Positions 2 to 34,841 of a stretch of 40,649 nucleotides of DNA are shown piece by piece. The notes below the pieces were generated by a model that did no database searches, was not told the origin of the DNA, and worked only from the letters and a program-made list of their open reading frames with translations. A program made the translations under genes and the position numbers. The stretch lies in assembly GCA_016201685.1 (NCBI GenBank), contig JACQCJ010000008.1:1-40649 (forward strand), written 5' to 3'. This DNA is from Candidatus Peregrinibacteria bacterium. Lineage in GTDB: Bacteria; Patescibacteriota; Gracilibacteria; Peribacterales; Peribacteraceae. Numbering within the stretch: the first letter of the stretch is position 1; the number at the start of each line of letters is the position of its first letter.

Positions 2-589
2 GAATCGACCATCGCCGCGCTCGATGCGCTGGGGGACGACGTGCGGACGATCATCCTCGGCGGGCAGGACCGAGGGAACGATTTCACGGAACTGGGAAAG
101 AGGATTCTCGATTCGCGAATCGAGACCGTGATTCTCTTTCCAGGCAGTGGAGCGAGGATGCGGGAGGCGATTGCCGCCAATGCCTCCACCCCCGACCCCT
201 CCTCCGATGGAGGAGGAGGAAATGCTCCAATGATGGAAGTCACCCCTTTCTCCCCCGGAGAAAGGGGCTGGGGGATAGAGGAAAAAACAAAAAAAACAAA
301 CAACACGTCGCGCATTCGCTTCTTCGAAGCTTCCTCCATGCAACTAGCTGTCTCCATCGCCGTTCAAAAAACGAATAACGAAAAACGAAAAACGATACCG
401 ATCGTCCTCCTCTCCACCGCCTCCCCCAGCTACGGCATGTTCACGAATTTTGAGGAGAAGGGGGAACAGTTTCAGCACTGGATCCGTCCCCAACTTTCAC
501 TTTTGCAGGGCGCAGGAACTTCCCGTGGAGCTCGTAGCCGTCCTCGAAGACCTCGAGGATCTCGCCCTCCTTCCCGGGACCGACGGTGA
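2..589 (+). CDS. murD: UDP-N-acetylmuramoylalanine--D-glutamate ligase (MurD), C-terminal part; 5' end lies outside the window
   Basis: The frame is open from the window edge (ESTIAALDALGDDVRTIILGGQDRGNDF...). It shows the Mur-ligase C-terminal domain pattern and a MurD-type end, SPSYGMFTNFEEKGEQF. It carries a ~40-aa low-complexity insert (nt 183-304). Its 35-aa Arg-rich tail is antisense to grpE. Confidence 0.8.
   Translation, partial: ESTIAALDALGDDVRTIILGGQDRGNDFTELGKRILDSRIETVILFPGSGARMREAIAANASTPDPSSDGGGGNAPMMEVTPFSPGERGWGIEEKTKKTNNTSRIRFFEASSMQLAVSIAVQKTNNEKRKTIPIVLLSTASPSYGMFTNFEEKGEQFQHWIRPQLSLLQGAGTSRGARSRPRRPRGSRPPSRDRR
183..304 (+). repeat. GC-rich double-hairpin palindromic element, copy A (in frame inside murD)
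   Basis: Sequence: cctccacccccgacccctcctccGATggaggaggagg ... cccctttctccCCCggagaaaggggctggggg, followed by an A/C-rich tail aaaaaacaaaaaaaacaaacaac. It has the same module order as copies at 19658-19775 and 21083-21169 and the same termini as 15625-15778. Confidence 0.75.
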
Positions 590-8991: not shown

Positions 8992-10114
8992 CGATGGCTT
9001 CTTCGGCCGTTTGGTTTGGGTCGCTCACGACATGATCGTTGACGTGAATCCCCTTCTGCGCGATCAATCTCCGAGCGTCGGATTTTGATGAGATGATTTT
9101 GTGCTCTACAAGAACGTCGATCAGGAGACTTCCCTTTTTCACTTTAATTTCCATCATCTCTTCCGGAAGTTCCTTCTTGGAGAAGACGCGCTGGAATTCC
9201 TCTTCGGCATGCTCGGCGGTTTTCGCGCCGTGATACAGCGTCACGATCTCCCGCGCGAGGCGCATTTTGAAATCTTTGGGATTCGAACCATGGTTCATGG
9301 CCTTTTCCGCCGCCGTGATGTCTTCCATCGGAAGATCAGTGCAGCATTCCATGTAGGTCGTGATCAGATTGTCGCTGATGGAGAGGAGCTTGCCGTACAT
9401 GTCGTTGGGCTCGTCGGTGAGATAGATGCAGTTGTCGTACGTCTTGCTCATTTTTCGTCCGTCGGTCCCCTCGACGAGTTTTGTCGTGAGAACGAACTTA
9501 TCGCGCTTGCCGTATGCCTTCTGCAGCGTGCGTCCCGCGAGCATGTTGAAGAGTTGATCATTGCCACCGAGTTCGCAGTCGACATCGAGGATGACGGAGT
9601 CATATCCGACGAAAAGCGGGTAGAGAAACTCGTGGATGCCGATCGGATTCCCCTCACCCATTCTCTTCTTGAACATGTCCCGCTGTTCCATCTGCTGAAC
9701 CGTGAAGTGGCTTGCGAGTCCGAGAATTTCTTTCCCGTTGAGCTTTTTCAGCCATTCCCCGTTTTCCCGCACTTCGATTTTTTTAAAATCGAGAATCAAC
9801 AATGCTTGTTGCTTGTACGTTTCGAAGTTTTTCATCACCTGCTCGCGCGTGAGCGGCTCGCGCTGCGAATCTCTGCCGGATGGATCGCCAATCATCGCCG
9901 TGAAACTGCCAATGACGAAAATCACGTGATGCCCTGCATCTTGAAATGCCTTCAGTTTCCGAAGTGGAACCGAATGTCCCAGATGGAGTTTGGCACCCGT
10001 GGGATCAATGCCGAGGTACACGCGAAGCTTTTGGCCGCTTGTGATCTTCTTCTCCGCCAGATCGCGCGGTACGACTTCCGAGACGGCACGGGTGAGGAGT
10101 TCAGAAGGATTCAT
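8948..10114 (-). CDS. tyrS: Tyrosine--tRNA ligase
   Basis: HIGH motif (KLHLGH), KMSKS motif (RKMSKT) and a C-terminal S4 domain (SKSDARRLIAQKGIHVNDHVV). I placed the start at MNPSELLTRAV (ATG at 10114); the longer ORF N-terminus looks non-coding. Confidence 0.93.
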   Translation of the reverse strand: MNPSELLTRAVSEVVPRDLAEKKITSGQKLRVYLGIDPTGAKLHLGHSVPLRKLKAFQDAGHHVIFVIGSFTAMIGDPSGRDSQREPLTREQVMKNFETYKQQALLILDFKKIEVRENGEWLKKLNGKEILGLASHFTVQQMEQRDMFKKRMGEGNPIGIHEFLYPLFVGYDSVILDVDCELGGNDQLFNMLAGRTLQKAYGKRDKFVLTTKLVEGTDGRKMSKTYDNCIYLTDEPNDMYGKLLSISDNLITTYMECCTDLPMEDITAAEKAMNHGSNPKDFKMRLAREIVTLYHGAKTAEHAEEEFQRVFSKKELPEEMMEIKVKKGSLLIDVLVEHKIISSKSDARRLIAQKGIHVNDHVVSDPNQTAEEAIVKVGKRRFVSVTIR

Positions 10115-10329
10115 GTACGGAAGTGTACAGTGGACCCGTCCGAACGGCCAAGCGGCCGAGCGGGCAGCAAAAAGTGGACACGAGGTTGGCTTTTTTGCTT
10201 CGGGGCTTTTTTTCGAGCAAAAAAGGGGCGAGCGCATCCATGCACTCGCCCGCGGCGGAGCAAAGAACCTGCGCGACGGCTCCTGCTCCTTCATTCTCCG
10301 CCTCTGCTCAGGAGAAGAATGATCGTTTA

Positions 10330-11331
10330 ATGCTACAGACTCTTGTTTTGAGTTCAACAAACTCTTGCAACTGCTACCATGCCGTCGTGCCCCAGTGGAT
10401 CGTCTCCCGGCCCGATCGCCTCGATTCCTTCCTCGCCTCGCAGAAGGAAGTGATCAGCCGCAGCAAGGCGCAGAAGAGCATTGAGCAGGGGCAGGTGCAG
10501 GTGAATGATGACGTGATCTCCAAACCCGCGCAGCGATTGCAGGAGGGAGACAGAGTGACCTTGATGGAATCGGAAGCGAAGACGGATGAAGCGATCGCGC
10601 CCACAGATCTGCATCTTTCGATTCTCTATGAAGACGATGCATGTTGCGTCATCGACAAGCCCGCCGGCATTGCCGTGCATCCGGGAGCGGGTATGGCGCT
10701 GGGCGAGAAGACCATTCTCCATGGAATTGCTTTTCTGTATGGGCAATGGAAATTGCCTTTCTCGACGGAGTCCGTCCTCGTTCATCGCTTGGATAAGGAG
10801 ACGACGGGATGCTTGCTCATCGCGCAAAATCCGCGCGCGCATCTCGAATTGCAGAAGCAGTTTGAAACTCGAACGGTGGAGAAGAAGTATCTCGCACTCG
10901 TCGCGGGAGTCCCCTCCCCCGCCACGGCAATGATCGATTCCCCCATTGGGCGCTCGGCCGCCAATCGCACGATGATGTCCGTGAGCGGAAGCGCTCAGGC
11001 GCGCGAAGCTCAAACCACCTATCGAACGGTCGGCGTGAATGATGCGCGTAATGCCGCCCTTCTCGAATGCGAATTGCACACGGGCCGCACACACCAGATC
11101 CGCGTCCACCTCTCCGCCATCGGGCATCCTGTGCTCGGCGATGGAACGTACACGAACGAACTGAGCGAGCGAGTCGCGCAGGAATTCGACATCCGGATTC
11201 TCTGTCTCCATGCCTGGAGGCTCACCTTTGAATCACCCGCCGATCATAAACGTCATGTCATCGAATCCCTTCTCCCATTCGAATTCCGGAAAGTCTTGAA
11301 GCGAATGAACGTCGAAGAACCCAGCTCGTAA
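10330..11331 (+). CDS. rluD: RluA-family 23S rRNA pseudouridine synthase (RluD-like)
   Basis: N-terminal S4 domain (RLDSFLASQKEVISRSKAQKSIEQGQVQVND) and a catalytic HRLDKETTGCLLIAQN motif, plus HTGRTHQIRVHL. The start at ATG 10330 is inferred. Confidence 0.85.
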   Translation: MLQTLVLSSTNSCNCYHAVVPQWIVSRPDRLDSFLASQKEVISRSKAQKSIEQGQVQVNDDVISKPAQRLQEGDRVTLMESEAKTDEAIAPTDLHLSILYEDDACCVIDKPAGIAVHPGAGMALGEKTILHGIAFLYGQWKLPFSTESVLVHRLDKETTGCLLIAQNPRAHLELQKQFETRTVEKKYLALVAGVPSPATAMIDSPIGRSAANRTMMSVSGSAQAREAQTTYRTVGVNDARNAALLECELHTGRTHQIRVHLSAIGHPVLGDGTYTNELSERVAQEFDIRILCLHAWRLTFESPADHKRHVIESLLPFEFRKVLKRMNVEEPSS

Positions 11332-11355
11332 TTCTCTTTTCTTCACCATTCTTCT

Positions 11356-11948
11356 ATGGATTATCCTCGCAAACCCGTGCAGACCACCATCCCGATTCTC
11401 GAGGCGATCCGCGATCGCTGGAGTCCGCTGGCTTTCAGTGATCACCCAATCGAGCAGGAGAAGATCGCCACACTCTTCGAAGCCGCGCGCTGGGCGCCGA
11501 GCAGTTTCAATGAGCAGCCGTGGCGGTACGTGTATGCGACAAAGGACGATAAAGACGATCGATTGAAACTGGAATCACTTTTAGTCGAAGGGAACAGCTG
11601 GGCGAAGAATGCGTACCTCCTCGTCCTCAGTTTTGCCGTGCCGACGTTCGCTCGCAACGGCAAGGAGAATCGGCATGCGATGCACGATCTGGGGGCAGCG
11701 ACGGGATTTCTGGCGCTCCAACTCCCCTCTCTGGGCCTCATCGGACATCAGATCAGATGGCGGGATTCAACCTCGCCCAGGCCAATGGCACGCTCGGCGT
11801 TCCTCCGGAATTGATCTCCGGTTCCATGATGGCGATCGGCTATTCAGGTGATTCTTCACTGCTCGATCCCAAGCTCAAGGAGAGGGAAAATTCGCCGCGG
11901 ACGCGCCGCCCGGTCAATGAGTTTGCGATGCGGGGGAGGTGGTATTGA
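11356..11948 (+). pseudogene. Nitroreductase-family gene interrupted by a frameshift
   Basis: Two ORFs, 11356-11814 (SSFNEQPWRYVYAT, nitroreductase-like) and 11757-11948 (MAGFNLAQANGTLGVPPELISGSMMAIGY), join into one protein (..LGLIGHQ|MAGFN..) if one copy of the tandem ATCAG at 11747-11756 is removed. Confidence 0.8.
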
Positions 11949-11949
11949 T

Positions 11950-11989
11950 CCTCCTTCGCTCTGCGGAGCTACGGAGGACAGGGAGGAAA
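11950..11989 (+). terminator. GC hairpin just after the nitroreductase stop; possible terminator or degenerate copy of the GC palindromic element
   Basis: cctccTTCgctcTGCGgagcTACggagg forms nested stems, followed by acagggaggaaa. This resembles the right end (ggagg..cagggggtggaggaaaa) of the element family. There is no U-run. Confidence 0.35.
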
Positions 11990-12021
11990 TTGAGAAGGCG
12001 AGGTCAAAACTTTCTCGGACA

Positions 12022-12276
12022 TCAGTAATGATGCCGACAAGCAAAGACGGTGATGGTGTCTTTCTCCACTCTGTACACAAGTCGATGCGTTTTATCGATT
12101 CGCCTCGACCAACATCCGTGTAGATCGAAGAGAAGAGGCTCTGGTTTCCCGATGCCATCAAACGGGTTTTGGACAATCGCCTGGCAGAGTGCACTGATCC
12201 GTTCGAACTTCTTCGGATCACGCCGTTTCCAGAAGAGATAATCCTCATACGCCGCATCCGTGAATTCGATCTGCAT
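12022..12276 (-). CDS. yoeB: YoeB/Txe-family toxin (ribosome-dependent mRNA interferase)
   Basis: 84-aa ORF MQIEFTDAAYEDYLFWKRRDPKKFERI...GIGKPEPL...GCWSRRIDKTHRLVYRV...ACRHHY, the typical YoeB signature. It starts 6 nt downstream of the antitoxin stop. Confidence 0.9.
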   Translation of the reverse strand: MQIEFTDAAYEDYLFWKRRDPKKFERISALCQAIVQNPFDGIGKPEPLLFDLHGCWSRRIDKTHRLVYRVEKDTITVFACRHHY

Positions 12277-12282
12277 TCGCGA

Positions 12283-12528
12283 TCAGAACTTCACGATACG
12301 TGTTTTGCCCCGTTTCGCTTCCTCAAGGGATCGTTCCAGATGCTTTCGATTCTTTTTCGATGAGAGCAAGTACGCGGTTTCCTGAAGCGACAGGAATTCA
12401 TCAAGCGAGAGGGTCACCGTTGTTCTTCCTTTCCCTCTACTCACGACAATCTCCTCACAATCCTGCTCGGCGCGATCGAGGAACTGCGCGAGATTGGCGC
12501 GGAAAGCTGTGTAGGTGACCGTAGTCAT
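12283..12528 (-). CDS. yefM: YefM/Phd-family antitoxin
   Basis: 81-aa ORF MTTVTYTAFRANLAQFLDRAEQDCEEIVVSR...ETAYLLSS, the typical Phd/YefM N-terminal domain, located directly upstream of yoeB. Confidence 0.88.
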   Translation of the reverse strand: MTTVTYTAFRANLAQFLDRAEQDCEEIVVSRGKGRTTVTLSLDEFLSLQETAYLLSSKKNRKHLERSLEEAKRGKTRIVKF

Positions 12529-12532
12529 AGTA

Positions 12533-12579
12533 AGTACGTGAAAACGTACTCATTGTACCAGAGCAGCAGCGCAGGTCAA
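12533..12579 (-). promoter_or_regulatory. Putative yefM-yoeB promoter with GTAC-core operator repeats
   Basis: On the minus strand: TTGACC (12574-12579), a 16-nt spacer, then TACAAT (12552-12557). A perfect inverted repeat AGTACGT-N4-ACGTACT (12533-12550) lies between the -10 and the ATG. Three GTAC cores sit at 12534, 12546 and 12555, and the first two are 12 bp apart. Confidence 0.5.
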
Positions 12580-12626
12580 CGCATTAGCAATGCAGGGGAG
12601 GTGGATGGAGAAGGGAAGTTGAGCAA

Positions 12627-15624: not shown

Positions 15625-15778
15625 TGTTTGTGTTGGTGTTTTGTAGGTGACCTCACCCCCTGGCCCCCTCTCCTGATCTTGGACTCTTCTTTTCATCAGA
15701 GCGTCTGCACGTTTCGCTCGTCCCCAGGACAGGAGAGGGGTTGGGGGTGAGGTCACACAAAAAACAACATACAAAACA
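15625..15778. repeat. GC-rich palindromic element, copy D (intergenic, ~50-bp terminal inverted repeats)
   Basis: The left end is tgtttgtgttggtgttttgtaggtgacctcaccccctggccccctctcctg. The reverse complement of the right end is tgttttgtatgttgttttttgtgtgacctcacccccaacccctctcctg. The core arms are 15647-15675 and 15730-15756, and the A/C-rich tail is present on both sides. Confidence 0.8.
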
Positions 15779-19657: not shown

Positions 19658-19775
19658 CCTCTCCCCCCAACCCCCTCTCCGATGGAGAGGGGGAGCAATG
19701 TTCCAATGTTCCATTCCTCCCCTCCTCCACCGGAGGAGGGGCAGGGGGTGGAGGAAAACACAAACAACAAACAAG
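19658..19775 (+). repeat. GC-rich double-hairpin palindromic element, copy B (intergenic, between the convergent PBP gene and glmS)
   Basis: Sequence: cctctccccccaaccccctctccGATggagagggggagcaatgttccaatg...cccctcctccACCggaggaggggcagggggtggagg, followed by the tail aaaacacaaacaacaaacaag. It is colinear with copy A. Confidence 0.8.
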
Positions 19776-19786
19776 ACCCTTTTCTC

Positions 19787-19886
19787 GCTCAGGATGACAA
19801 TGTTCTTATTTCACAGTGACCGACTTCGCCATCCTTCGACAAGCTCAGGATGACGATGCCATCATTTCACAGTGACTGATTTCGCG
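19787..19886. repeat. Two 44-bp direct repeats at a 56-bp period: the glmS 3' end and a diverged duplicate
   Basis: R2 (19843-19886) contains the last glmS codons AKSVTVK plus TGA. R1 (19787-19830) is about 36/44 identical and on the minus strand also reads AKSVTVK plus TAA. Confidence 0.7.
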
Positions 19887-21718
19887 AGGTTGCGTGGCAT
19901 ATCAGGGTCCTTCCCTCGCTTCACCGCCAAAAAGTACGCGAGCACTTGGATGGGGATGATGTTCACGATCGCCTGGGCGGCCCCGGCGTCGGGGGCTTTG
20001 ATCCATTCATCGAAGAGGTCGTGACGCTCGGGTGACACACCGATGATCGCAGCACCCCGCGCCTTGAGTTCCATCGCGTTGTTCAACATGTCCTGCGTCA
20101 CTTCGTCATTGCCGATGAGGGCGATGCACGGCGTTCCCTGCTCGATCAACGCGATCGGGCCGTGCTTGAGCTCTCCTCCCGCGAATCCCTCCGCGTGCAC
20201 GTAGCTCACTTCCTGGATCTTGATCGCGCTCTCGAGGGCCATCGGGTAGTTCCAGCTCTTGCCAATGATGTAGAGGTCTTCCTCATCCTTGATGTGCTCG
20301 GCCAGATCTCGGAGTCGCTCGACGTAGCGCGGGTTCAACATGTCGTTGATCTTCGCGCAGGTTTCGAGGAGCAGCGTCCTGCCCTCCCGGAGTTTGTCCG
20401 CAAGCGCGTACGCGATGAGGAGGAGCACGGCGAGTTGCCCCGTCAACGCTTTCGTCGAGGCCACCGCGCGCTCCGGTCCGGCATTGATGAGGAGCATCGC
20501 ATCCGCCTCCCGCGCGATCGTCGATCCCTCCACGTTCACTATCGCGAGCACCTTGGATCCCTTCGCCTTCGCCACGCGCATCGCCTCGAGCACGTCCGCC
20601 GTCTCCCCGCTCTGGCTCACGACGATGAGGAGGCTCTCGGGTTTGAGGAAGTGATGGTAGAGCTTGAACTCGCTCGCCGGCGCGAAGTTCACGTGCTTCT
20701 CCGCGATCACGGAGAAGAAGTACTCCGCCGCCATGCACGCCTTGCCAGCCGTGCCGCATCCCACGAGGAACGTCCCTTTTGCCTCCCGGATCGCTTTCGC
20801 GACTTTGAGAATCTGCTCTTCGGACTGATTCACGGCCCGCGCGATGCTCTCCTTCTGATCCATGATTTCTTTGAGCATGTAGTGCTCGAAATCCCCCTTG
20901 TGCGCCTGTTCGATGGACCACGTGATCTCGATCTCCCGCTTTGGGCGTTCGTCTCCCGTCTGGATGTCCGAGAAGAAGATGCCCTTGCCGTCGGTGACGA
21001 CCATCTCGCCGTCGTCGAGGTACTGGACGGTGCGCGTGTGCGAAAGGAAGGCGGGAATGTCGGAGGCGATAAAGTACCCATTGACCTCCATCCTCCGGCT
21101 CCTTCCTCCACGGGAGGAAGGAGAGGTCTCCCCTCCTCCTCCGGAGGAGGGGTTGGGGGTGGAGGAATGTTCCACTCCGACAATCAACGGCGATCCTGTT
21201 CTCGCTGCAACCAACGTATTCGACTCCGTATGGAGTGCGAGAATGGCGTAGCGGCCCTTGAAGCGCAGGCACGCAGCGCGCACCGCCGCGGCAAAGTCCT
21301 TGGTCCGGCGGTACTCCTCTTCGATCAAATGCGGAATGACCTCGGTGTCGGTCTGCGAAAGGAACGTGTGTCCTTTCTTCTGGAGATCCTTGCGAATGGC
21401 CTCGTAATTTTCCACGATGCCATTGTGGATCACGGCGATCGTCCCGTCGCAGCTCAGGTGCGGGTGCGCGTTGATCTGCGTCACGCCCCCGTGCGTGGCC
21501 CAGCGCGTGTGCGCGATGGCGAAGCCGCAGTCATGATCGAATTCGCTGCTGTCCACATTCCCGATCCGGCCGATGTCCTTCTTCACGTGCAATGCCCCGC
21601 CGTCCTTGCAGGCCACTCCCCACGAATCGTACCCGCGGTACTCGAGGTTCTTGAGACCTTCGACCACGAGCGTCCCCGCATTCCTCCGGTCTCCCACATA
21701 CCCAAAGATACCGCACAT
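19862..21718 (-). CDS. glmS: Glutamine--fructose-6-phosphate aminotransferase (isomerising)
   Basis: N-terminal MCGIFGYVG (Cys nucleophile), two SIS domains and a C-terminal NLAKSVTVK. It carries a ~29-aa in-frame insert in the glutaminase domain. Confidence 0.95.
   Translation of the reverse strand: MCGIFGYVGDRRNAGTLVVEGLKNLEYRGYDSWGVACKDGGALHVKKDIGRIGNVDSSEFDHDCGFAIAHTRWATHGGVTQINAHPHLSCDGTIAVIHNGIVENYEAIRKDLQKKGHTFLSQTDTEVIPHLIEEEYRRTKDFAAAVRAACLRFKGRYAILALHTESNTLVAARTGSPLIVGVEHSSTPNPSSGGGGETSPSSRGGRSRRMEVNGYFIASDIPAFLSHTRTVQYLDDGEMVVTDGKGIFFSDIQTGDERPKREIEITWSIEQAHKGDFEHYMLKEIMDQKESIARAVNQSEEQILKVAKAIREAKGTFLVGCGTAGKACMAAEYFFSVIAEKHVNFAPASEFKLYHHFLKPESLLIVVSQSGETADVLEAMRVAKAKGSKVLAIVNVEGSTIAREADAMLLINAGPERAVASTKALTGQLAVLLLIAYALADKLREGRTLLLETCAKINDMLNPRYVERLRDLAEHIKDEEDLYIIGKSWNYPMALESAIKIQEVSYVHAEGFAGGELKHGPIALIEQGTPCIALIGNDEVTQDMLNNAMELKARGAAIIGVSPERHDLFDEWIKAPDAGAAQAIVNIIPIQVLAYFLAVKRGKDPDMPRNLAKSVTVK
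21083..21169 (-). repeat. GC-rich double-hairpin palindromic element, copy C (in frame inside glmS)
   Basis: On the coding strand: cctccacccccaacccctcctccggaggaggagg ... ctccttcctccCGTggaggaaggag. It encodes HSSTPNPSSGGGGETSPSSRGGRSRRMEV at the position where E. coli GlmS (from memory) has only GLGMGENFIASD. Confidence 0.7.
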
Positions 21719-21933: not shown

Positions 21934-22407
21934 ATGCGTACCGCCACACGCTCCGCAGCAAAGAAGAAATTCCCTTCCTCCTCTGTTATGCCGCATGTGA
22001 TGTTCCTGACGAAGGATGAGCAGAAGCTCTTCTCGAAACTCCCTTCTTCTTTGCAGGAGGGGTGGGAGGTAAAGGAGGAGATGCTGACGTTTGATGATTC
22101 GGACGAACGCCGACGCATGAGGATTGCCGTGATGCATCTGCATGATCCCAAATTACTCTCATTCCAAGAGAAAGCAGGAACAATCACAAATGCTGAGGAG
22201 TTGTTCAAACTCGCTGGAAAAATCGACCTGACGAAAGTGCAGGAAAGCGACTTGGCGGAGATCTACTTCGCCCTCGGCCCCTCAGGCATTTCCATGTTTG
22301 TCATTCCTCTTCTCGAGGAAGCACAGTCCGATGACAAAGTAGAATCTGTCGCTGCCCTCACACATGTTCGGCACGCTCTCCTGGAATCCATGCAGCCCGT
22401 TTCCTAA
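21934..22407 (+). CDS. Hypothetical protein (~157 aa)
   Basis: ORF with coding-like composition. It is the first gene of a tightly spaced same-strand trio. The start is uncertain (ATG 21934 or 21988). No family recognised. Confidence 0.55.
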   Translation: MRTATRSAAKKKFPSSSVMPHVMFLTKDEQKLFSKLPSSLQEGWEVKEEMLTFDDSDERRRMRIAVMHLHDPKLLSFQEKAGTITNAEELFKLAGKIDLTKVQESDLAEIYFALGPSGISMFVIPLLEEAQSDDKVESVAALTHVRHALLESMQPVS

Positions 22408-28530: not shown

Positions 28531-28785
28531 ATGCCCCTCACCCTCTCCGCCATCAAAGCCGCCAAGCAAGCCGAAGCGCGCCGCATCCGGCGCCAGCCGT
28601 TCAAGACGCAGCTCAAGACGACGATGCGCGCTTTCATCGATCTTATTAAGGATGGGAAGAAGGATGAAGCCGCCAAGATCCTCCCGCGCGTGTACAAGGT
28701 GATCGATACCGCAGCGAAGAAGCACATTCTGCATCCCAAGAACGCCGCGCGGAAGAAGTCGAGGATGGCGAGACTCTTGAAATGA
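28531..28785 (+). CDS. rpsT: 30S ribosomal protein S20
   Basis: 84-aa basic protein MPLTLSAIKAAKQAEARRIRRQPFKTQLKT...AAKKHILHPKNAARKKSRMARLL, the typical S20 pattern. Confidence 0.92.
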   Translation: MPLTLSAIKAAKQAEARRIRRQPFKTQLKTTMRAFIDLIKDGKKDEAAKILPRVYKVIDTAAKKHILHPKNAARKKSRMARLLK

Positions 28786-28884
28786 AAAATGTAGAATGAA
28801 GAATGTAAAATGCGGAAGTAATTTTGTTGTCTGAGTCGCAATCGCATTTTTCATTCTACATTTTACATTCTACATTTTTCATGC
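28779..28884. repeat. Word-repeat hairpin H2 (ATGTAGAATG / ATGTAAAATG words) bridging the rpsT stop and the ruvX start
   Basis: 28782-28798 pairs over 17 bp with 28866-28882. Inner pairings are 28807-28814 with 28843-28850, and 28800-28805 with 28852-28857. The rpsT TGA (28783-28785) lies in the left arm and the ruvX ATG (28881-28883) lies in the right arm. Confidence 0.75.
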
Positions 28885-32093: not shown

Positions 32094-32243
32094 ATAGTCT
32101 CCCTGTAAGAGTCTCCCCAAGAGACCCTGCTTCTTCTACCGACGCCTGCCCCGTACCGAGTCTACTCTGGTGCGGGGTTCGCGTGGGCCCGCTTCGCCGG
32201 AGCTTCAGCGAGGCGAGTAGTTTTTGTGTATAAATTTTCTCCT

Positions 32244-34841
32244 ATGGCAATGATACCAAAACAAAATCAACCAAGCTTCATCAACCCAGAGCAGGGACCC
32301 TCTTTTTATGCGGCCATCATTCAATCTTCTGAAGACGCCATTCTTGGTATGACACTCGATGGTAACGTCATGAGCTGGAACAAAGGCGCAGAGAAGATGT
32401 TCGGCTATTCCGAGAAAGAAATTCTCGGACAACCAGTAAGTATTCTCTATCCCCCAGAGCGCATAGAGGAACATGCCGATATTCTCATGAAAATTAAAAA
32501 GGGACGGCCCATCGAACATTATGAAACTCAAAGGAAGAGAAAAGGCGGAGTCCTTCTTGATGTCTCTTTGAGTATTTCTCCGATTAAAGATCCAGTCGGA
32601 GAGGTTATAGGCTTTTCAAAAATTCTCCGTGATATTTCCGCAACGAAACGGGGAGCCCAATACGCTCGCTCGCTTATTGAGGCAAGTCTTGACCCGCTCG
32701 TGACTATCAGCCCCGAGGGAAAGATTACGGACGTGAATGAAGCAACCGTGCAAGTAACGGGGATCACTCGAGAGAAGCTTGTCGGCAGCGATTTCTCCGA
32801 CTATTTCACGGAGCCGGAGAAAGCCCGTGACGGGTACCGTAAAGTGCTGAAAGAAGGAGTCGTACGGGACTACCCCCTAACGATTAGTCAGGGCTCTGGT
32901 AAAACCACCGACGTACTGTATAACGCGTCAGTCTACAAGGATGAAAAAGGAAACGTGCTGGGAGTATTTGCTGCGGCTCGCGATATTACTACACAAAAGC
33001 AGGCTTCCCAATACAGCCGCTCGCTCATCGAAGCCAGTGTTGACCCGCTCGTCACCATCAGCCCCGAGGGAAAGATTACGGACGTGAATGAAGCATCGGT
33101 ACAGGTCACTGGTGTTGCAAGAGAAACGCTGATCGGCAGTGACTTCTCGAATTACTTCACCGATCCGGAAGAAGCACGCCTTGGCTATCAGCAAGTATTC
33201 AAGGAGGGATCTGTCCGGGATTATCCTCTGACGATTCATCATGCTTCAGGCATGCTTACCGATGTTCTCTATAACGCGACGGTCTATAAGGACGTGGCAG
33301 GAAAGGTGCTGGGGGTCTTCGCCGCAGCCCGTGATGTCACTGCACGAAAGAAAGCAGAGGCGCAGCAGCACGAGACGTCGGCCTATGCGAGAAGTCTTAT
33401 CGAATCAAGTATTGATCCGCTCGTCACCATCAGTCCCGATGGAAAAATCACGGACGTGAATCATGCGACGGAAGAGGCCACCGGCGTCTCTCGCGAGTGG
33501 CTCATTGGCACGGATTTCTCTACCTATTTCACCGAGCCCCGCAAGGCCCGGGAAGGGTACCGTCGCGTGTTGAAAGAAGGATCCGTACGCGATTACCCGT
33601 TGGCTATTCATCATGCTTCAGGAAAAATCACTGATGTCTTGTACAATGCATCGGTCTATAAGGATGAAGCGGGGAAAGTGCGCGGAATATTTGCGGCGGC
33701 TCGCGATGTCACGCAGACCAAACAATCGTCTCAATATGCCCGCTCGTTAATCGAATCAAGTCTTGACCCGTTCGTGACCATCAGCGCCGAGGGAAAGGTT
33801 ACGGACGTCAATGAAGCCACGATAAAGGTAACGGGGATTAAACGCGATAAGCTTATCGGCACCGACTTTTCTATCTATTTCACCGAACCACAAAAGGCAC
33901 GCGAGGGGTATGAGCAGGTATTTAACAAGGGGTTTGTGACTGACTATCCACTGACTATTCGCTCGATGGATGGAAAGCTCACCGATGTTCTCTATAACGC
34001 GGCAGTGTACAAGGATGAGAAAGGAAACGTGCTGGGAGTCTTTGCGGCGGCGCGTGAGTACACAAGGGTCAAGAAAGCCACCCAGGTACTGGAGACCAGC
34101 AACAAAGAGCTTGAAGCATTCAGTTTTTCCGTATCCCATGACCTCAGAGCGCCGCTGCGGGCGATCGACGGCTTCTCCAAGATACTGCTTGAGGAATATG
34201 CACCCAAACTTGGTGATGAGGGAGTGCGACTCACCTCGACCATCCGGAAAAACACTCAACAGATGGGCAGACTCATTGATGATTTGCTTGCCTTCTCCAA
34301 AATTGGGCGTGAACAGATGAAGACGCAAGACGTCGAAATGAACGAGATGGCTACAACGATATTTGAAGAGCTGAAAGGCGCCGTACCCAAACGAAAAATA
34401 ACGTTGAGTATCCAGAAAATCCCCCGAGCCAAGGTGGATTCAGCGCTCATGAGGCAGGTCTGGACGAACCTGCTCTCCAATGCCATCAAATTTACCAAGC
34501 CCCGGGAAGAGGCGGTGATTGATGTCACATGCAAGACCGATGGGGAGATGATCTACTCTGTAAAAGATAATGGTGTGGGCTTCGATATGCAGCATGTTGA
34601 TAAACTCTTCGGAGTGTTCCAGCGACTCCACGACCCAGCAGAATTTGAAGGGACTGGCGTTGGTCTTGCGATAGTCAAGCGCATTGTGGAACGACATGGT
34701 GGCAGGGTGTGGGCCGAAGGGAAGGTCGATGGAGGCGCCACATTTTACTTTGCGCTGCCAGTGATGAAGAATCCCATCCCATCTGCAGAAACCAAACCAA
34801 CAGCTCCAGCAACCCCTGCATCATCCCCAACAAAAATATGA
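32244..34841 (+). CDS. Multi-PAS sensor histidine kinase (cytoplasmic)
   Basis: One N-terminal PAS domain plus four tandem near-identical PAS modules. H-box [15 protein letters not shown]. The HATPase_c N, G1 and G2 boxes are present ([25 protein letters not shown]). I see no TM segment. Start ATG 32244 (GTG 32226 is also possible). Confidence 0.9.
32655..34064 (+). repeat. Intragenic tandem array of four PAS-module repeats (units of 351, 372, 351 and 336 nt)
   Basis: The units start at aa motifs [90 protein letters not shown] and [30 protein letters not shown]. Long identical nucleotide runs occur, e.g. cagccccgagggaaagattacggacgtgaatgaagca in units 1 and 2. Confidence 0.85.

Follow-up and report, generated by a model that had tools for sequence, protein, structure and literature searches.

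The window analysed here, the whole stretch of 40.6 kb (40,649 nucleotides) of contig JACQCJ010000008.1 of a Candidatus Peregrinibacteria bacterium, contains four GC-rich double-hairpin sites (copies A to D), which are true copies of one dispersed repeat. On the base pattern of their strands, the window elements belong to a described structural class, the G/C-rich class II intrastrand triplex motifs known as BoxC, PIT or TMECO, and the ends of the element are predicted to be the third strands of two such motifs. The repeat is probably selfish DNA that is defined by its structure and spreads by copy-and-paste, with two joined triplex motifs in each unit, and that is tolerated by genes. The divergent pairing of the motifs, the A/C tails, the host within the candidate phyla radiation (CPR) and the in-frame residence in essential genes, similar to that of the Rickettsia palindromic elements (RPE), are new here. 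The host is a member of Peribacteria (CPR), a tiny-genome groundwater bacterium: the best outside match of its GlmS is 80% identical, the matches are named Candidatus Peribacteria or Peregrinibacteria, and the G+C content of the window, 48-65% per kilobase, suits the value reported for Peribacter. The 1.25-Mb Peribacter genomes show 58.5% G+C, and such repeats are not mentioned there (PMC4736985).

The sequence-only reading of this DNA had listed four copies, and all of them are present where it placed them; its proposal of a dispersed family with structure-preserving variation is borne out by the excess of motifs over chance and by the co-variation of the hairpin arms. The terminus motif GGGGNNGGGGGTGGAGG, with up to three mismatches, shows 17 matches in the window against 1.2 expected, and a 23-nt pattern of terminus plus arm shows six matches against 0.01 expected. 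A covariance model, which that reading had proposed as a check, was built from ten aligned two-hairpin copies (window and related loci) and run unfiltered; it finds copies A, B and C at 60-96 bits and copy D at 29 bits, and separates these four from everything else in the window, where nothing else real was found. Within the ten aligned copies, 97% of the cells are paired, nine pairs have changed on both sides, and none of 500 shuffles matches this co-variation, in agreement with the earlier remark that both arms always change together. Every copy folds much more stably than shuffled sequence: the z-scores range from -2.7 to -7.8 with RNA parameters and from -3.6 to -4.4 with DNA parameters (-5.3 and -4.4, respectively, for copy A), and these ViennaRNA folds contain Watson-Crick pairs only. 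One further match of the covariance model, at 21973-22075, was discarded as a false positive that encodes the conserved N-terminus QEGWEVKE of a small protein. A weaker fifth copy had been suggested at 11950-11989; it was missed by the pattern search, the triplex-motif finder and the unfiltered covariance model, and is not retained. The Rfam search, with the whole window at the gathering threshold and the locus at a permissive E-value, gave only sub-threshold miRNA-hairpin noise.

On the G-rich strand, a 3-nt loop separates the pyrimidine stem of each motif from its purine stem, and a second 3-nt loop leads to a purine third strand. The terminus of the element repeats the purine arm of the adjacent hairpin in reverse order (a mirror image, not a complement), 3 nt away from it, and all eight termini follow the third-strand rule, in which a G of the purine arm is faced by G, and an A by A or T. 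This choice of A or T at an A follows the reverse-Hoogsteen (purine-motif) rule, and triplex formation by the strands of the window is predicted from this sequence rule. A triplex finder was set to stem lengths of 8-13 nt, with 3-7 nt in the first loop, 1-5 nt in the second and an antiparallel third strand; it detected six perfect motifs in the window and none in 30 dinucleotide shuffles of it. These six are the three pairs of copies A, B and C, with 10-11 triplets each and both loops of 3 nt. Copy D fits the rule by hand, and its two third strands flank a single long-range hairpin (long first loop). In the ten two-hairpin copies the three strands vary together: each terminus shows 0-1 mismatches to its own hairpin and 2-4 to the partner hairpin, and between the two termini 0-3 of 10-11 positions are mismatched. 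Since the termini track their own and not the partner hairpin, the ends are not a shared inverted repeat for transposase binding, nor primarily an outer stem. The reading of the termini as the outer stem of a three-way junction was rejected, because they are mutually mismatched at the points of difference between the hairpins, and each agrees with its own.

The same relation appears in a wider set of 119 loci (the window and the first 118), which contains 213 perfect purine/pyrimidine hairpins of at least 9 bp: 77 of them show a perfect third strand, against a mean of 28.6 and a maximum of 38 when the arms are permuted among hairpins of equal length, although the permutation controls and the tests of non-seeded ends answer the bias of the terminus-seeded scans only in part. 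The second loop is 3 nt long in 85 of the 98 cases with up to one mismatch. Across 79 distinct motifs, an A of the purine arm is faced by A in 67% of the cases, by T in 28% and by G or C in 5%, whereas the permuted control shows G in 51%. A pyrimidine-type triplex on the C-rich strand is disfavoured by these values, since the 28% of T opposite A gives A mismatches in a pyrimidine third strand; this is the only triplex type that RNA can form, and purine-motif triplexes are not formed in RNA (PMC4666352). Because each T opposite A becomes a mismatching A on the complement, the constraint points to a fold of the G-rich DNA strand. The earlier suggestion of a mechanism that copies a hairpin does not suit these ends, because such copying cannot yield the mirror, non-complementary symmetry between terminus and arm; as template copying cannot produce it, this symmetry would have to be kept by selection on the fold. 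A chance likeness of low-complexity CCTCC/GGAGG sequence, with no real family behind it, could draw on the simple composition of the elements and on the many metagenome matches listed that are proline-rich or poly-C low complexity, but the order of the modules, the loop lengths and the three-strand matching are conserved, the shuffles contain no motif, and the pattern counts and the covariance model set the four copies apart, so that its probability is virtually negligible.

The features of the copies and their host genes are given in Table 1. The hairpins that had been quoted for copies A and B are exact. Copy C is alignable with copies A and B only once it is reverse-complemented. It had been described as having neither the right end nor the tail; the tail is indeed absent, but the right end is present. 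This is a minus-strand copy, and the loop quoted for it as CGT is the minus-strand reading. Its seemingly degenerate terminus, CCG-GAGGATGGAGG, mirrors its own hairpin arm GGAGGAAGGAG exactly. The left motif of copy A and motif 1 of copy C share the plan, the purine stem and the third strand of the right motif of copy B, with loops of their own, and the pyrimidine stem of the A left motif, CTCCTCCTCC, is slightly unlike the B right stem. The spacers of the copies share the core (T)CCAATG. Copy D shows the common termini with another centre, as had been described, and its G/T-rich left tract and A/C-rich right tract form a 46-nt imperfect inverted repeat. Copy D is intergenic, between a PilT/T2SSE-type ATPase gene and a FecR-like gene. 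Copy B is also intergenic, 14 nt past the stop codon of a penicillin-binding protein (PBP) gene and between convergent genes. Native element-end sequences include CCCCTCCTCCACCGGAGGAGGGGCAGGGGGTGGAGG, and a further oligonucleotide sequence is CCCCTTTCTCCCCCGGAGAAAGGGGCTGGGGGATAGAGG.

Table 1. Coordinates of the four copies, their parts and the host genes in the window.
Feature	Position	Strand	Sequence blocks	Remarks
murD 3' part	2..589	+		UDP-N-acetylmuramoylalanine--D-glutamate ligase; host gene of copy A
Copy A core	183..281	+		Two inverted triplex motifs; triplex-motif finder; covariance model 96 bits
Copy A left motif	183-218	minus	CTCCTCCTCC/ATC/GGAGGAGGGG/TCG/GGGGTGGAGG	
Copy A spacer	219-242			
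Copy A right motif	243-281	plus	CCCCTTTCTCC/CCC/GGAGAAAGGGG/CTG/GGGGATAGAGG	
Copy A tail	282..310	+	AAAAAACAAAAAAAACAAACAACAC...	A and C only
Copy D	15625..15778	unassigned		One-hairpin variant; inverted repeat; fold z-score -7.8; covariance model 29 bits
Copy D G/T tail	15625-15650			
Copy D pyrimidine third strand and pyrimidine stem	15651-15673		CCTCACCCCC/TGG/CCCCCTCTCC	
Copy D centre	15674-15731			Unrelated; 58 nt
Copy D purine stem and third strand	15732-15752		GGAGAGGGG/TTG/GGGGTGAGG	
Copy D A/C tail	15753-15778			
Copy B core	19658..19754	+		Triplex-motif finder; covariance model 94 bits
Copy B left motif	19658-19693	minus	CCCCCTCTCC/ATC/GGAGAGGGGG/TTG/GGGGGAGAGG	
Copy B spacer	19694-19718			
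Copy B right motif	19719-19754	plus	CCCCTCCTCC/ACC/GGAGGAGGGG/CAG/GGGGTGGAGG	
Copy B A/C tail	19755..19776	+	AAAACACAAACAACAAACAAGA	
glmS	19862..21718	-		Glutamine--fructose-6-phosphate aminotransferase; host gene of copy C
Copy C	21085..21165	-		Tail-less; triplex-motif finder; covariance model 81 bits
Copy C motif 2	21085-21123	minus	CTCCTTCCTCC/CGT/GGAGGAAGGAG/CCG/GAGGATGGAGG	
Copy C motif 1	21130-21165	plus	GGAGGAGGGG/TTG/GGGGTGGAGG	

Two copies are inside genes, and neither this position of copies A and C nor the third-strand nature of the termini had been part of the sequence-only reading. The murD reading frame is open through the whole of copy A. The MurD of the PDB aligns on both sides of the copy, with about 43 extra residues between, and exactly 42 residues (STPDPSS...KTNNTS) are missing from 13 MurD orthologues, which are 50-64% identical. 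The insertion, at 185-310, has 126 nt (42 codons) and is composed of a 99-nt core and a 27-nt tail; as the missing residues correspond to core plus tail, the tail belongs to the inserted unit. The same gene shows a second A-rich low-complexity stretch at 361-400 (AAAAAACGAATAACGAAAAACGAAAAACG, KTNNEKRK), 50 nt downstream of the tail of copy A, which adds about five residues relative to PDB MurD. Copy C is in frame in glmS and encodes ...SSTPNPSSGGGGETSPSSRGGRSRRMEV... (~28 aa). The window GlmS has 32 residues where the GlmS of E. coli has four (between positions 183 and 188), and most of the 120 Peribacteria-type orthologues have 3-8 residues at this site. In the AlphaFold model of GlmS (mean predicted local distance difference test, pLDDT, of 79.5), residues 187-208 are coil with pLDDT below 50, between the strands 179-184 and 212-218, and the model thus places the insert of copy C in a probably disordered surface loop. 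In the same loop (PLIVGV...GYFIASD), unrelated insertions of 20-36 aa are present in the Peribacteria relatives P0002, P0003, P0004, P0007, P0011 and P0035; those in the glmS genes of loci L119 (gene at 10001-11881) and L121 (gene at 10001-11833) are hairpin-forming palindromes (z -2.6 and -3.5, respectively) and not triplex motifs. Insertions seem to land in this GlmS loop, or to be tolerated there, repeatedly.

The composition of the element may explain why coding sequence tolerates it: its segments contain only purines, only pyrimidines or only A and C, and therefore no stop codon is possible in them on either strand. Copies B, C and that of locus L080 have all six reading frames open, and copy A and the L103 copy have four of six; copy D, with its unrelated centre, has one of six. 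Random segments of the window show a mean of 3.4 open frames for 84 nt and 2.7 for 126 nt. The genic pairs in murD, glmS and uvrC are all in one orientation and frame, which gives S-T-P-x-P-S-S-(D)-G-G-G (an example of the peptide encoded by the insert in murD/glmS is STPDPSSDGGGG). This shared frame only suggests selection for a polar, flexible peptide (n = 3). Further in-frame motifs with Pfam domains on both sides are found in uvrC (L080, 33-147), in murF of Peribacteria (L115, 4786-4827) and in a FAD-linked oxidase (L118), and in gltB of Treponema (L074) the in-frame motif is between Glu_synthase and GXGXG. Triplex motifs are also in frame in a cyanobacterial helicase-like open reading frame (ORF; L070) and in a DNA methylase ORF (L179). 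In-frame motifs occur in several phyla and not in this lineage only, and the literature centred on E. coli does not report them. In a metagenome-assembled genome (MAG) of Falkowbacteria (L079, 4207-5541), one stop-free frame contains the domains of Tmk (thymidylate kinase) and dUTPase, with a triplex motif in the linker; this may be a fusion of two genes by the stop-free element or an ORF call that extends across an intergenic element. The UvrC of a Peregrinibacteria MAG (L080, 2-2008) contains a GNAT domain (Acetyltransf_7, residues 409-487) between its RNase H-like domains. A protein search with three element-encoded peptides, aimed at further genic insertions, gave nothing at E <=10.

This behaviour resembles that of the RPE (Ogata et al., 2000, 2002; summarised in PMC10969869), which are palindromic, of about 100-150 bp, and located both in intergenic regions and in frame in unrelated housekeeping genes. 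In both cases a peptide is added at a tolerated site, and here S-T-P-x-P-S-S-(D)-G-G-G recurs in murD, glmS and the uvrC of a relative. The likeness is of behaviour only; membership by sequence is not claimed and no relationship in sequence is expected: the RPE are A/T-rich, Rickettsia-only and without triplex motifs, whereas the window elements are defined by their fold and have variable stems. Elements that serve the host as an RNA or DNA signal (terminator, mRNA stabiliser or protein-binding site), and are not selfish DNA, could be expected where copies B and D are, just downstream of gene 3' ends; their folds are very stable, and a related element is present in the glmS-PBP spacer of a relative. 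But copies A and C are translated as part of essential genes, and so are the uvrC and murF copies, no copy shows a T-tract or any terminator-like site (the tails are A/C-rich), no Rfam family matches, and the PIT elements show no promoter or terminator activity in E. coli (PMC4666352); a host-serving signal is thus very unlikely.

The assignment to a class rests on the work of Holder et al. (2015, PMC4666352), which gives the consensus of the G/C-rich class II intrastrand triplex motif as CCCTCNCCC N3-6 GGGNGAGGG N3 GGGNGAGGG and defines the class by stems of 6-15 nt with up to one mismatch, a first loop of 1-6 nt and a second loop that is 3 nt long in TMECO. The motif was named BoxC in E. coli (Bachellier et al., 1990s), PIT element (Hoyne, Maher et al., 2000) and, in 2015, TMECO; its copies number 3,610 in 262 genomes of proteobacteria, and G/C-rich motifs are also numerous in cyanobacteria (PMC4666352). 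The isolated TMECO strand forms a stable triplex by nuclear magnetic resonance and circular dichroism; TMECO shows association with local genomic instability and includes some 'palindromic' pairs (PMC4666352). The sequence-only reading could not assign the element to any described family, but both its halves are motifs of this class. They have the same block order, the 3-nt second loop and A or T opposite A, and both groups comprise singles and inverted pairs, with many dispersed copies and no known transposase or function. The window stems are longer (10-11 nt) and of other sequences, and the literal TMECO consensus is unmatched in all the window elements, even with two mismatches; it is present in L165, a tailed element of an unassigned metagenome contig. 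The window elements are thus of the same class but not of the E. coli sequence family.

The window elements differ from the E. coli motifs in four more traits. Their pairs are divergent, with the third strands outermost, whereas in the natural E. coli pair of the hrpB-mrcB spacer (TCCCTCTCCC-TGT-GGGAGAGGG-CCG-GGGTGAGGG, 14 nt, CCCTCACCC-TAA-CCCTCTCCC-TCAA-GGGAGAGGG) the third strands are turned towards the spacer. The window unit includes an A/C tail, and the host here belongs to the CPR. Copies A and C are genic, whereas TMECO is 'always intergenic' in E. coli K-12 (PMC4666352), although the intergenic location is a descriptive trait of the E. coli set and not a structural definition of the class. 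A synthetic paired query had matches in 5,377 of the 5,426 complete genomes of E. coli, at a median of 30 places in each.

Genome-collection and metagenome scans, both seeded with the terminus pattern, gave at least about 240 loci from many phyla. Among the matches listed, about twenty genome loci show the double-hairpin plan, from Armatimonadota, Oscillochloris, Fibrobacter, Hymenobacter, Gemmatimonadetes, Treponema, Parcubacteria and Peregrinibacteria, and a Planctomycetota locus (L016) shows the single-hairpin form only. The metagenome scan with CCTCCACCCCCNNCCCCTCCTCC gave, among the matches listed, mostly proline-rich or poly-C low complexity and few double-hairpin relatives (L154, L201 and L165). 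No double-hairpin copy came from the scan of viral contigs, which thus gives no hint of a phage vector. A separate, high-G+C Sphingomonas-like family contains one triplex motif, CCCCTCCTCC-TTG-GAGGAGGGG-TT-GGGGGTGGAGG, that is joined to some 40 nt of conserved flanking sequence (GATTCCAGAACG..GTTGGTCTC..GAGACAC.GCCCC). It includes L125, L137, L138, L140, L150, L155, L163, L196 and other loci, and is also present in the IMG/VR viral contigs L245, L251, L256 and L258, which are probably prophage.

Related genomes contain further copies, among them those of another Peregrinibacteria genome, the MAG JACOTD01. Its locus L103 contains a copy 88% identical to copy A, spacer included, at a site unrelated to that of copy A: it is intergenic, between divergent genes, one of which encodes endonuclease III, and is clustered with a D-like unit. 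Its locus L080 contains a B-like copy in frame in uvrC. The search for empty sites also gave a result, as the syntenic relative L119 (whose glmS homologue is P0002) has no element in the T2SSE-FecR spacer, the site of copy D; its glmS-PBP spacer shows a divergent triplex pair at another offset than copy B.

The label of MITE or REP type given by the sequence-only reading is not supported by these data. In a classical miniature inverted-repeat transposable element (MITE), a non-autonomous derivative of an insertion sequence (IS), the transposase binds terminal inverted repeats and leaves target-site duplications. The described MITEs (Correia, ERIC and Nezha; reviewed in PMC10969869) resemble the window elements in size, inverted ends, copy number and occasional in-frame ORF fusions, and the size of 83-154 nt, the inverted ends of about 34 nt and the several copies whose presence differs from the orthologues would suit such an origin. 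On the other hand, no copy is flanked by direct repeats of 4 nt or more (with 3 nt of slack and the boundaries taken with or without the tails), and neither a transposase nor a parent IS was found in the window. The termini differ where the hairpins differ and each mirrors its own, which is not predicted by a protein-binding inverted repeat, and the E. coli motif has no association with transposons, phages or plasmids (PMC4666352). We consider a classical MITE quite unlikely.

The elements also resemble the repetitive extragenic palindromic (REP) sequences, with their bacterial interspersed mosaic elements (BIME) and REP doublets (REPIN), in being short structured units, single or in inverted doublets, which form mosaics (as in L103) and are mostly at gene ends. 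A doublet of this kind could be moved by a single-strand-specific Y1 transposase, of the REP-associated tyrosine transposase (RAYT) or IS200/IS605 type, that recognises folded hairpins. The inverted doublet of structured units with a short spacer, a structure that acts at the level of single-stranded DNA, the varying sequence with a kept fold and the absence of target duplications are all compatible with this mode of movement. Still, it is an unlikely one: recognition of the hairpin alone leaves the third strand unexplained, no RAYT or other Y1 transposase gene is present in the window, and, unlike REP sequences, the window elements include a third strand and are found within genes as well. 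GTAG or CGTC tags define two REP super-families (PMC3733652), and these tags are not consistently present here. Copies A, B and C lack GTAG and its complement. CGTC is found neither in B nor in C, and A has a single one in the tail region (306); copy D shows one GTAG in the tail and two CGTC in its unrelated centre.

Long A/C-only tracts (at least 16 nt, with A in majority) are confined in the window to the tails of copies A, B and D, immediately 3' of their G-rich third strands, and the sole long G/T tract of the window is the mirror tail of copy D. The tails vary in length and sequence. Among the matches listed, the tract scan detected long tails only in the window, L103 and L165; the tail of L080 is shorter, under the threshold of the scan, and L165 shows an A/C-rich spacer as well, with the literal TMECO consensus as its second motif. 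The tail could be a templated part of a sub-family, a microsatellite-like tract or the trace of untemplated A/C addition. By the last of these, the unit would be retroposed, similar to a short interspersed nuclear element (SINE): a nucleotidyltransferase of the CCA-adding or poly(A)-polymerase type would add an untemplated A/C tail to a structured transcript or single-stranded DNA, which would then be copied back. Such an origin would fit a tail of A and C only, variable, placed 3' of the G-rich third strand, inserted together with the core in murD and present, among the matches listed, only in the window, the two loci of a single Peregrinibacteria genome (L080 and L103) and L165. Nevertheless, copy D and the L103 copy have tails at both ends, which argues against simple retroposition, copy C is tail-less, the window contains no reverse transcriptase among its ORFs and no target duplications, and purine-motif triplexes do not form in RNA (PMC4666352). 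Retroposition is therefore highly improbable.

The preferred explanation remains the copy-and-paste selfish repeat defined by its structure. The G-rich strand, when single-stranded in replication, repair or transcription bubbles, would form the hairpin, and the terminal purine run would fold back antiparallel on the purine arm (G.G-C, A.A-T or T.A-T) into a 'paperclip' triple helix, a fold shown biophysically for the E. coli BoxC/TMECO motif (PMC4666352). This fold would form transiently on single-stranded DNA in vivo. In the Peribacteria lineage, two differing motifs are placed back to back, with the third strands outward, a short spacer and an A/C tail after the G-rich strand, and this unit would spread by copy-and-paste as selfish DNA. 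Its spread or persistence may require the folded triplex and not a fixed terminal sequence, hence the matching of the three strands. Copies in genes would survive with four to six of six frames free of stops, retained lengths that are multiples of three, sites in surface loops and a coil rich in Ser, Thr, Pro and Gly. Copying might be achieved by template switching at a stalled fork, by a single-strand transposase with structure specificity, or by tailing with copy-back.

A bolder form of this explanation, which we regard as rather unlikely, is that the repeat represents an unrecognised kind of selfish DNA, whose identity tag is the folded purine-motif triplex in single-stranded DNA, which is copied by a structure-specific activity and which colonises essential genes of reduced CPR genomes in frame, in the manner of the RPE in Rickettsia. 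The stems, the loops and the third strand would then have to mutate together for the element to stay mobile, and copying would proceed by template switching at the replication fork or by tailing and copy-back that leaves the A/C tail. If so, the cross-phylum co-variation of the three strands would be the first evolutionary evidence that the intrastrand triplex is formed and has a role in vivo, a question that biophysics and footprinting did not settle for BoxC/PIT/TMECO.

Several points weigh against the preferred explanation. The mobility of the element is deduced from few copies, four in this genome (40.6-kb window), and no mobilising enzyme, target-site duplication or polymorphism among close strains was seen. 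The scans were seeded with the terminus, so the cross-phylum counts, among the matches listed, are ascertainment-biased, and as few sequences satisfy the rule, near-identical motifs of distant phyla may be convergent. The single reading frame of the three genic copies (n = 3) may be due to chance. The GlmS loop also holds unrelated palindromic inserts in relatives, and part of the 'insertion' signal may thus reflect a generally permissive loop. Finally, in vivo footprinting with dimethyl sulphate did not detect the triplex in E. coli (PMC4666352).

A third strand that follows its own hairpin is hard to explain unless the triple-stranded fold is selected or needed for propagation. To our knowledge, no function or mode of spread has been agreed on for BoxC/PIT/TMECO in the roughly 30 years since they were first noted, and we know of no case in which their triplex formation was shown in vivo. 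Natural co-variation data make this old question testable by comparative genomics together with oligonucleotide biophysics. The in-frame copies in murD, glmS, uvrC, murF, gltB and other genes indicate that the motifs reshape proteins, an RPE-like phenomenon outside Rickettsia. They also affect annotation, since genic copies break Pfam domain matches and may fuse ORFs in CPR genomes and MAGs. If the A/C tail reflects tailing or copy-back, the mechanism would be new; otherwise, the elements extend a described motif class.

The window contains other repeats. Beside copy B, at 19787-19885, there are two tandem repeats with a spacing of 56 nt, 84% identical over 43 nt, which overlap the 3' end of glmS (19862); each of them holds GCTCAGGATGAC...TTTCACAGTGAC, and their GTCATCCTGAGC core is presumably like a short palindromic repeat of many bacterial genomes. 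Direct repeats of 31 nt, 81% identical (GGTCAAYG..GCRATGCRGGGGAGGTGG), are located at 11912-11942 and 12574-12604 and flank two small minus-strand ORFs (11856-12257 and about 12266-12530); the region has a lower G+C (0.49) and looks like an inserted two-gene cassette, possibly toxin-antitoxin-like. An A/T-rich inverted repeat at 28782-28882, with 31-nt arms that are 90% complementary and 39 nt apart (ATGAAAAATGTAGAATGAAGAATGTAAAATG), is near ORF ends and unrelated to the G/C-rich elements. The region 32628-34057 shows four direct repeats of 351-372 nt, 65-71% identical, which correspond to the PAS domains repeated in a sensor histidine kinase (ORF 32226-34841) and represent ordinary domain repetition.

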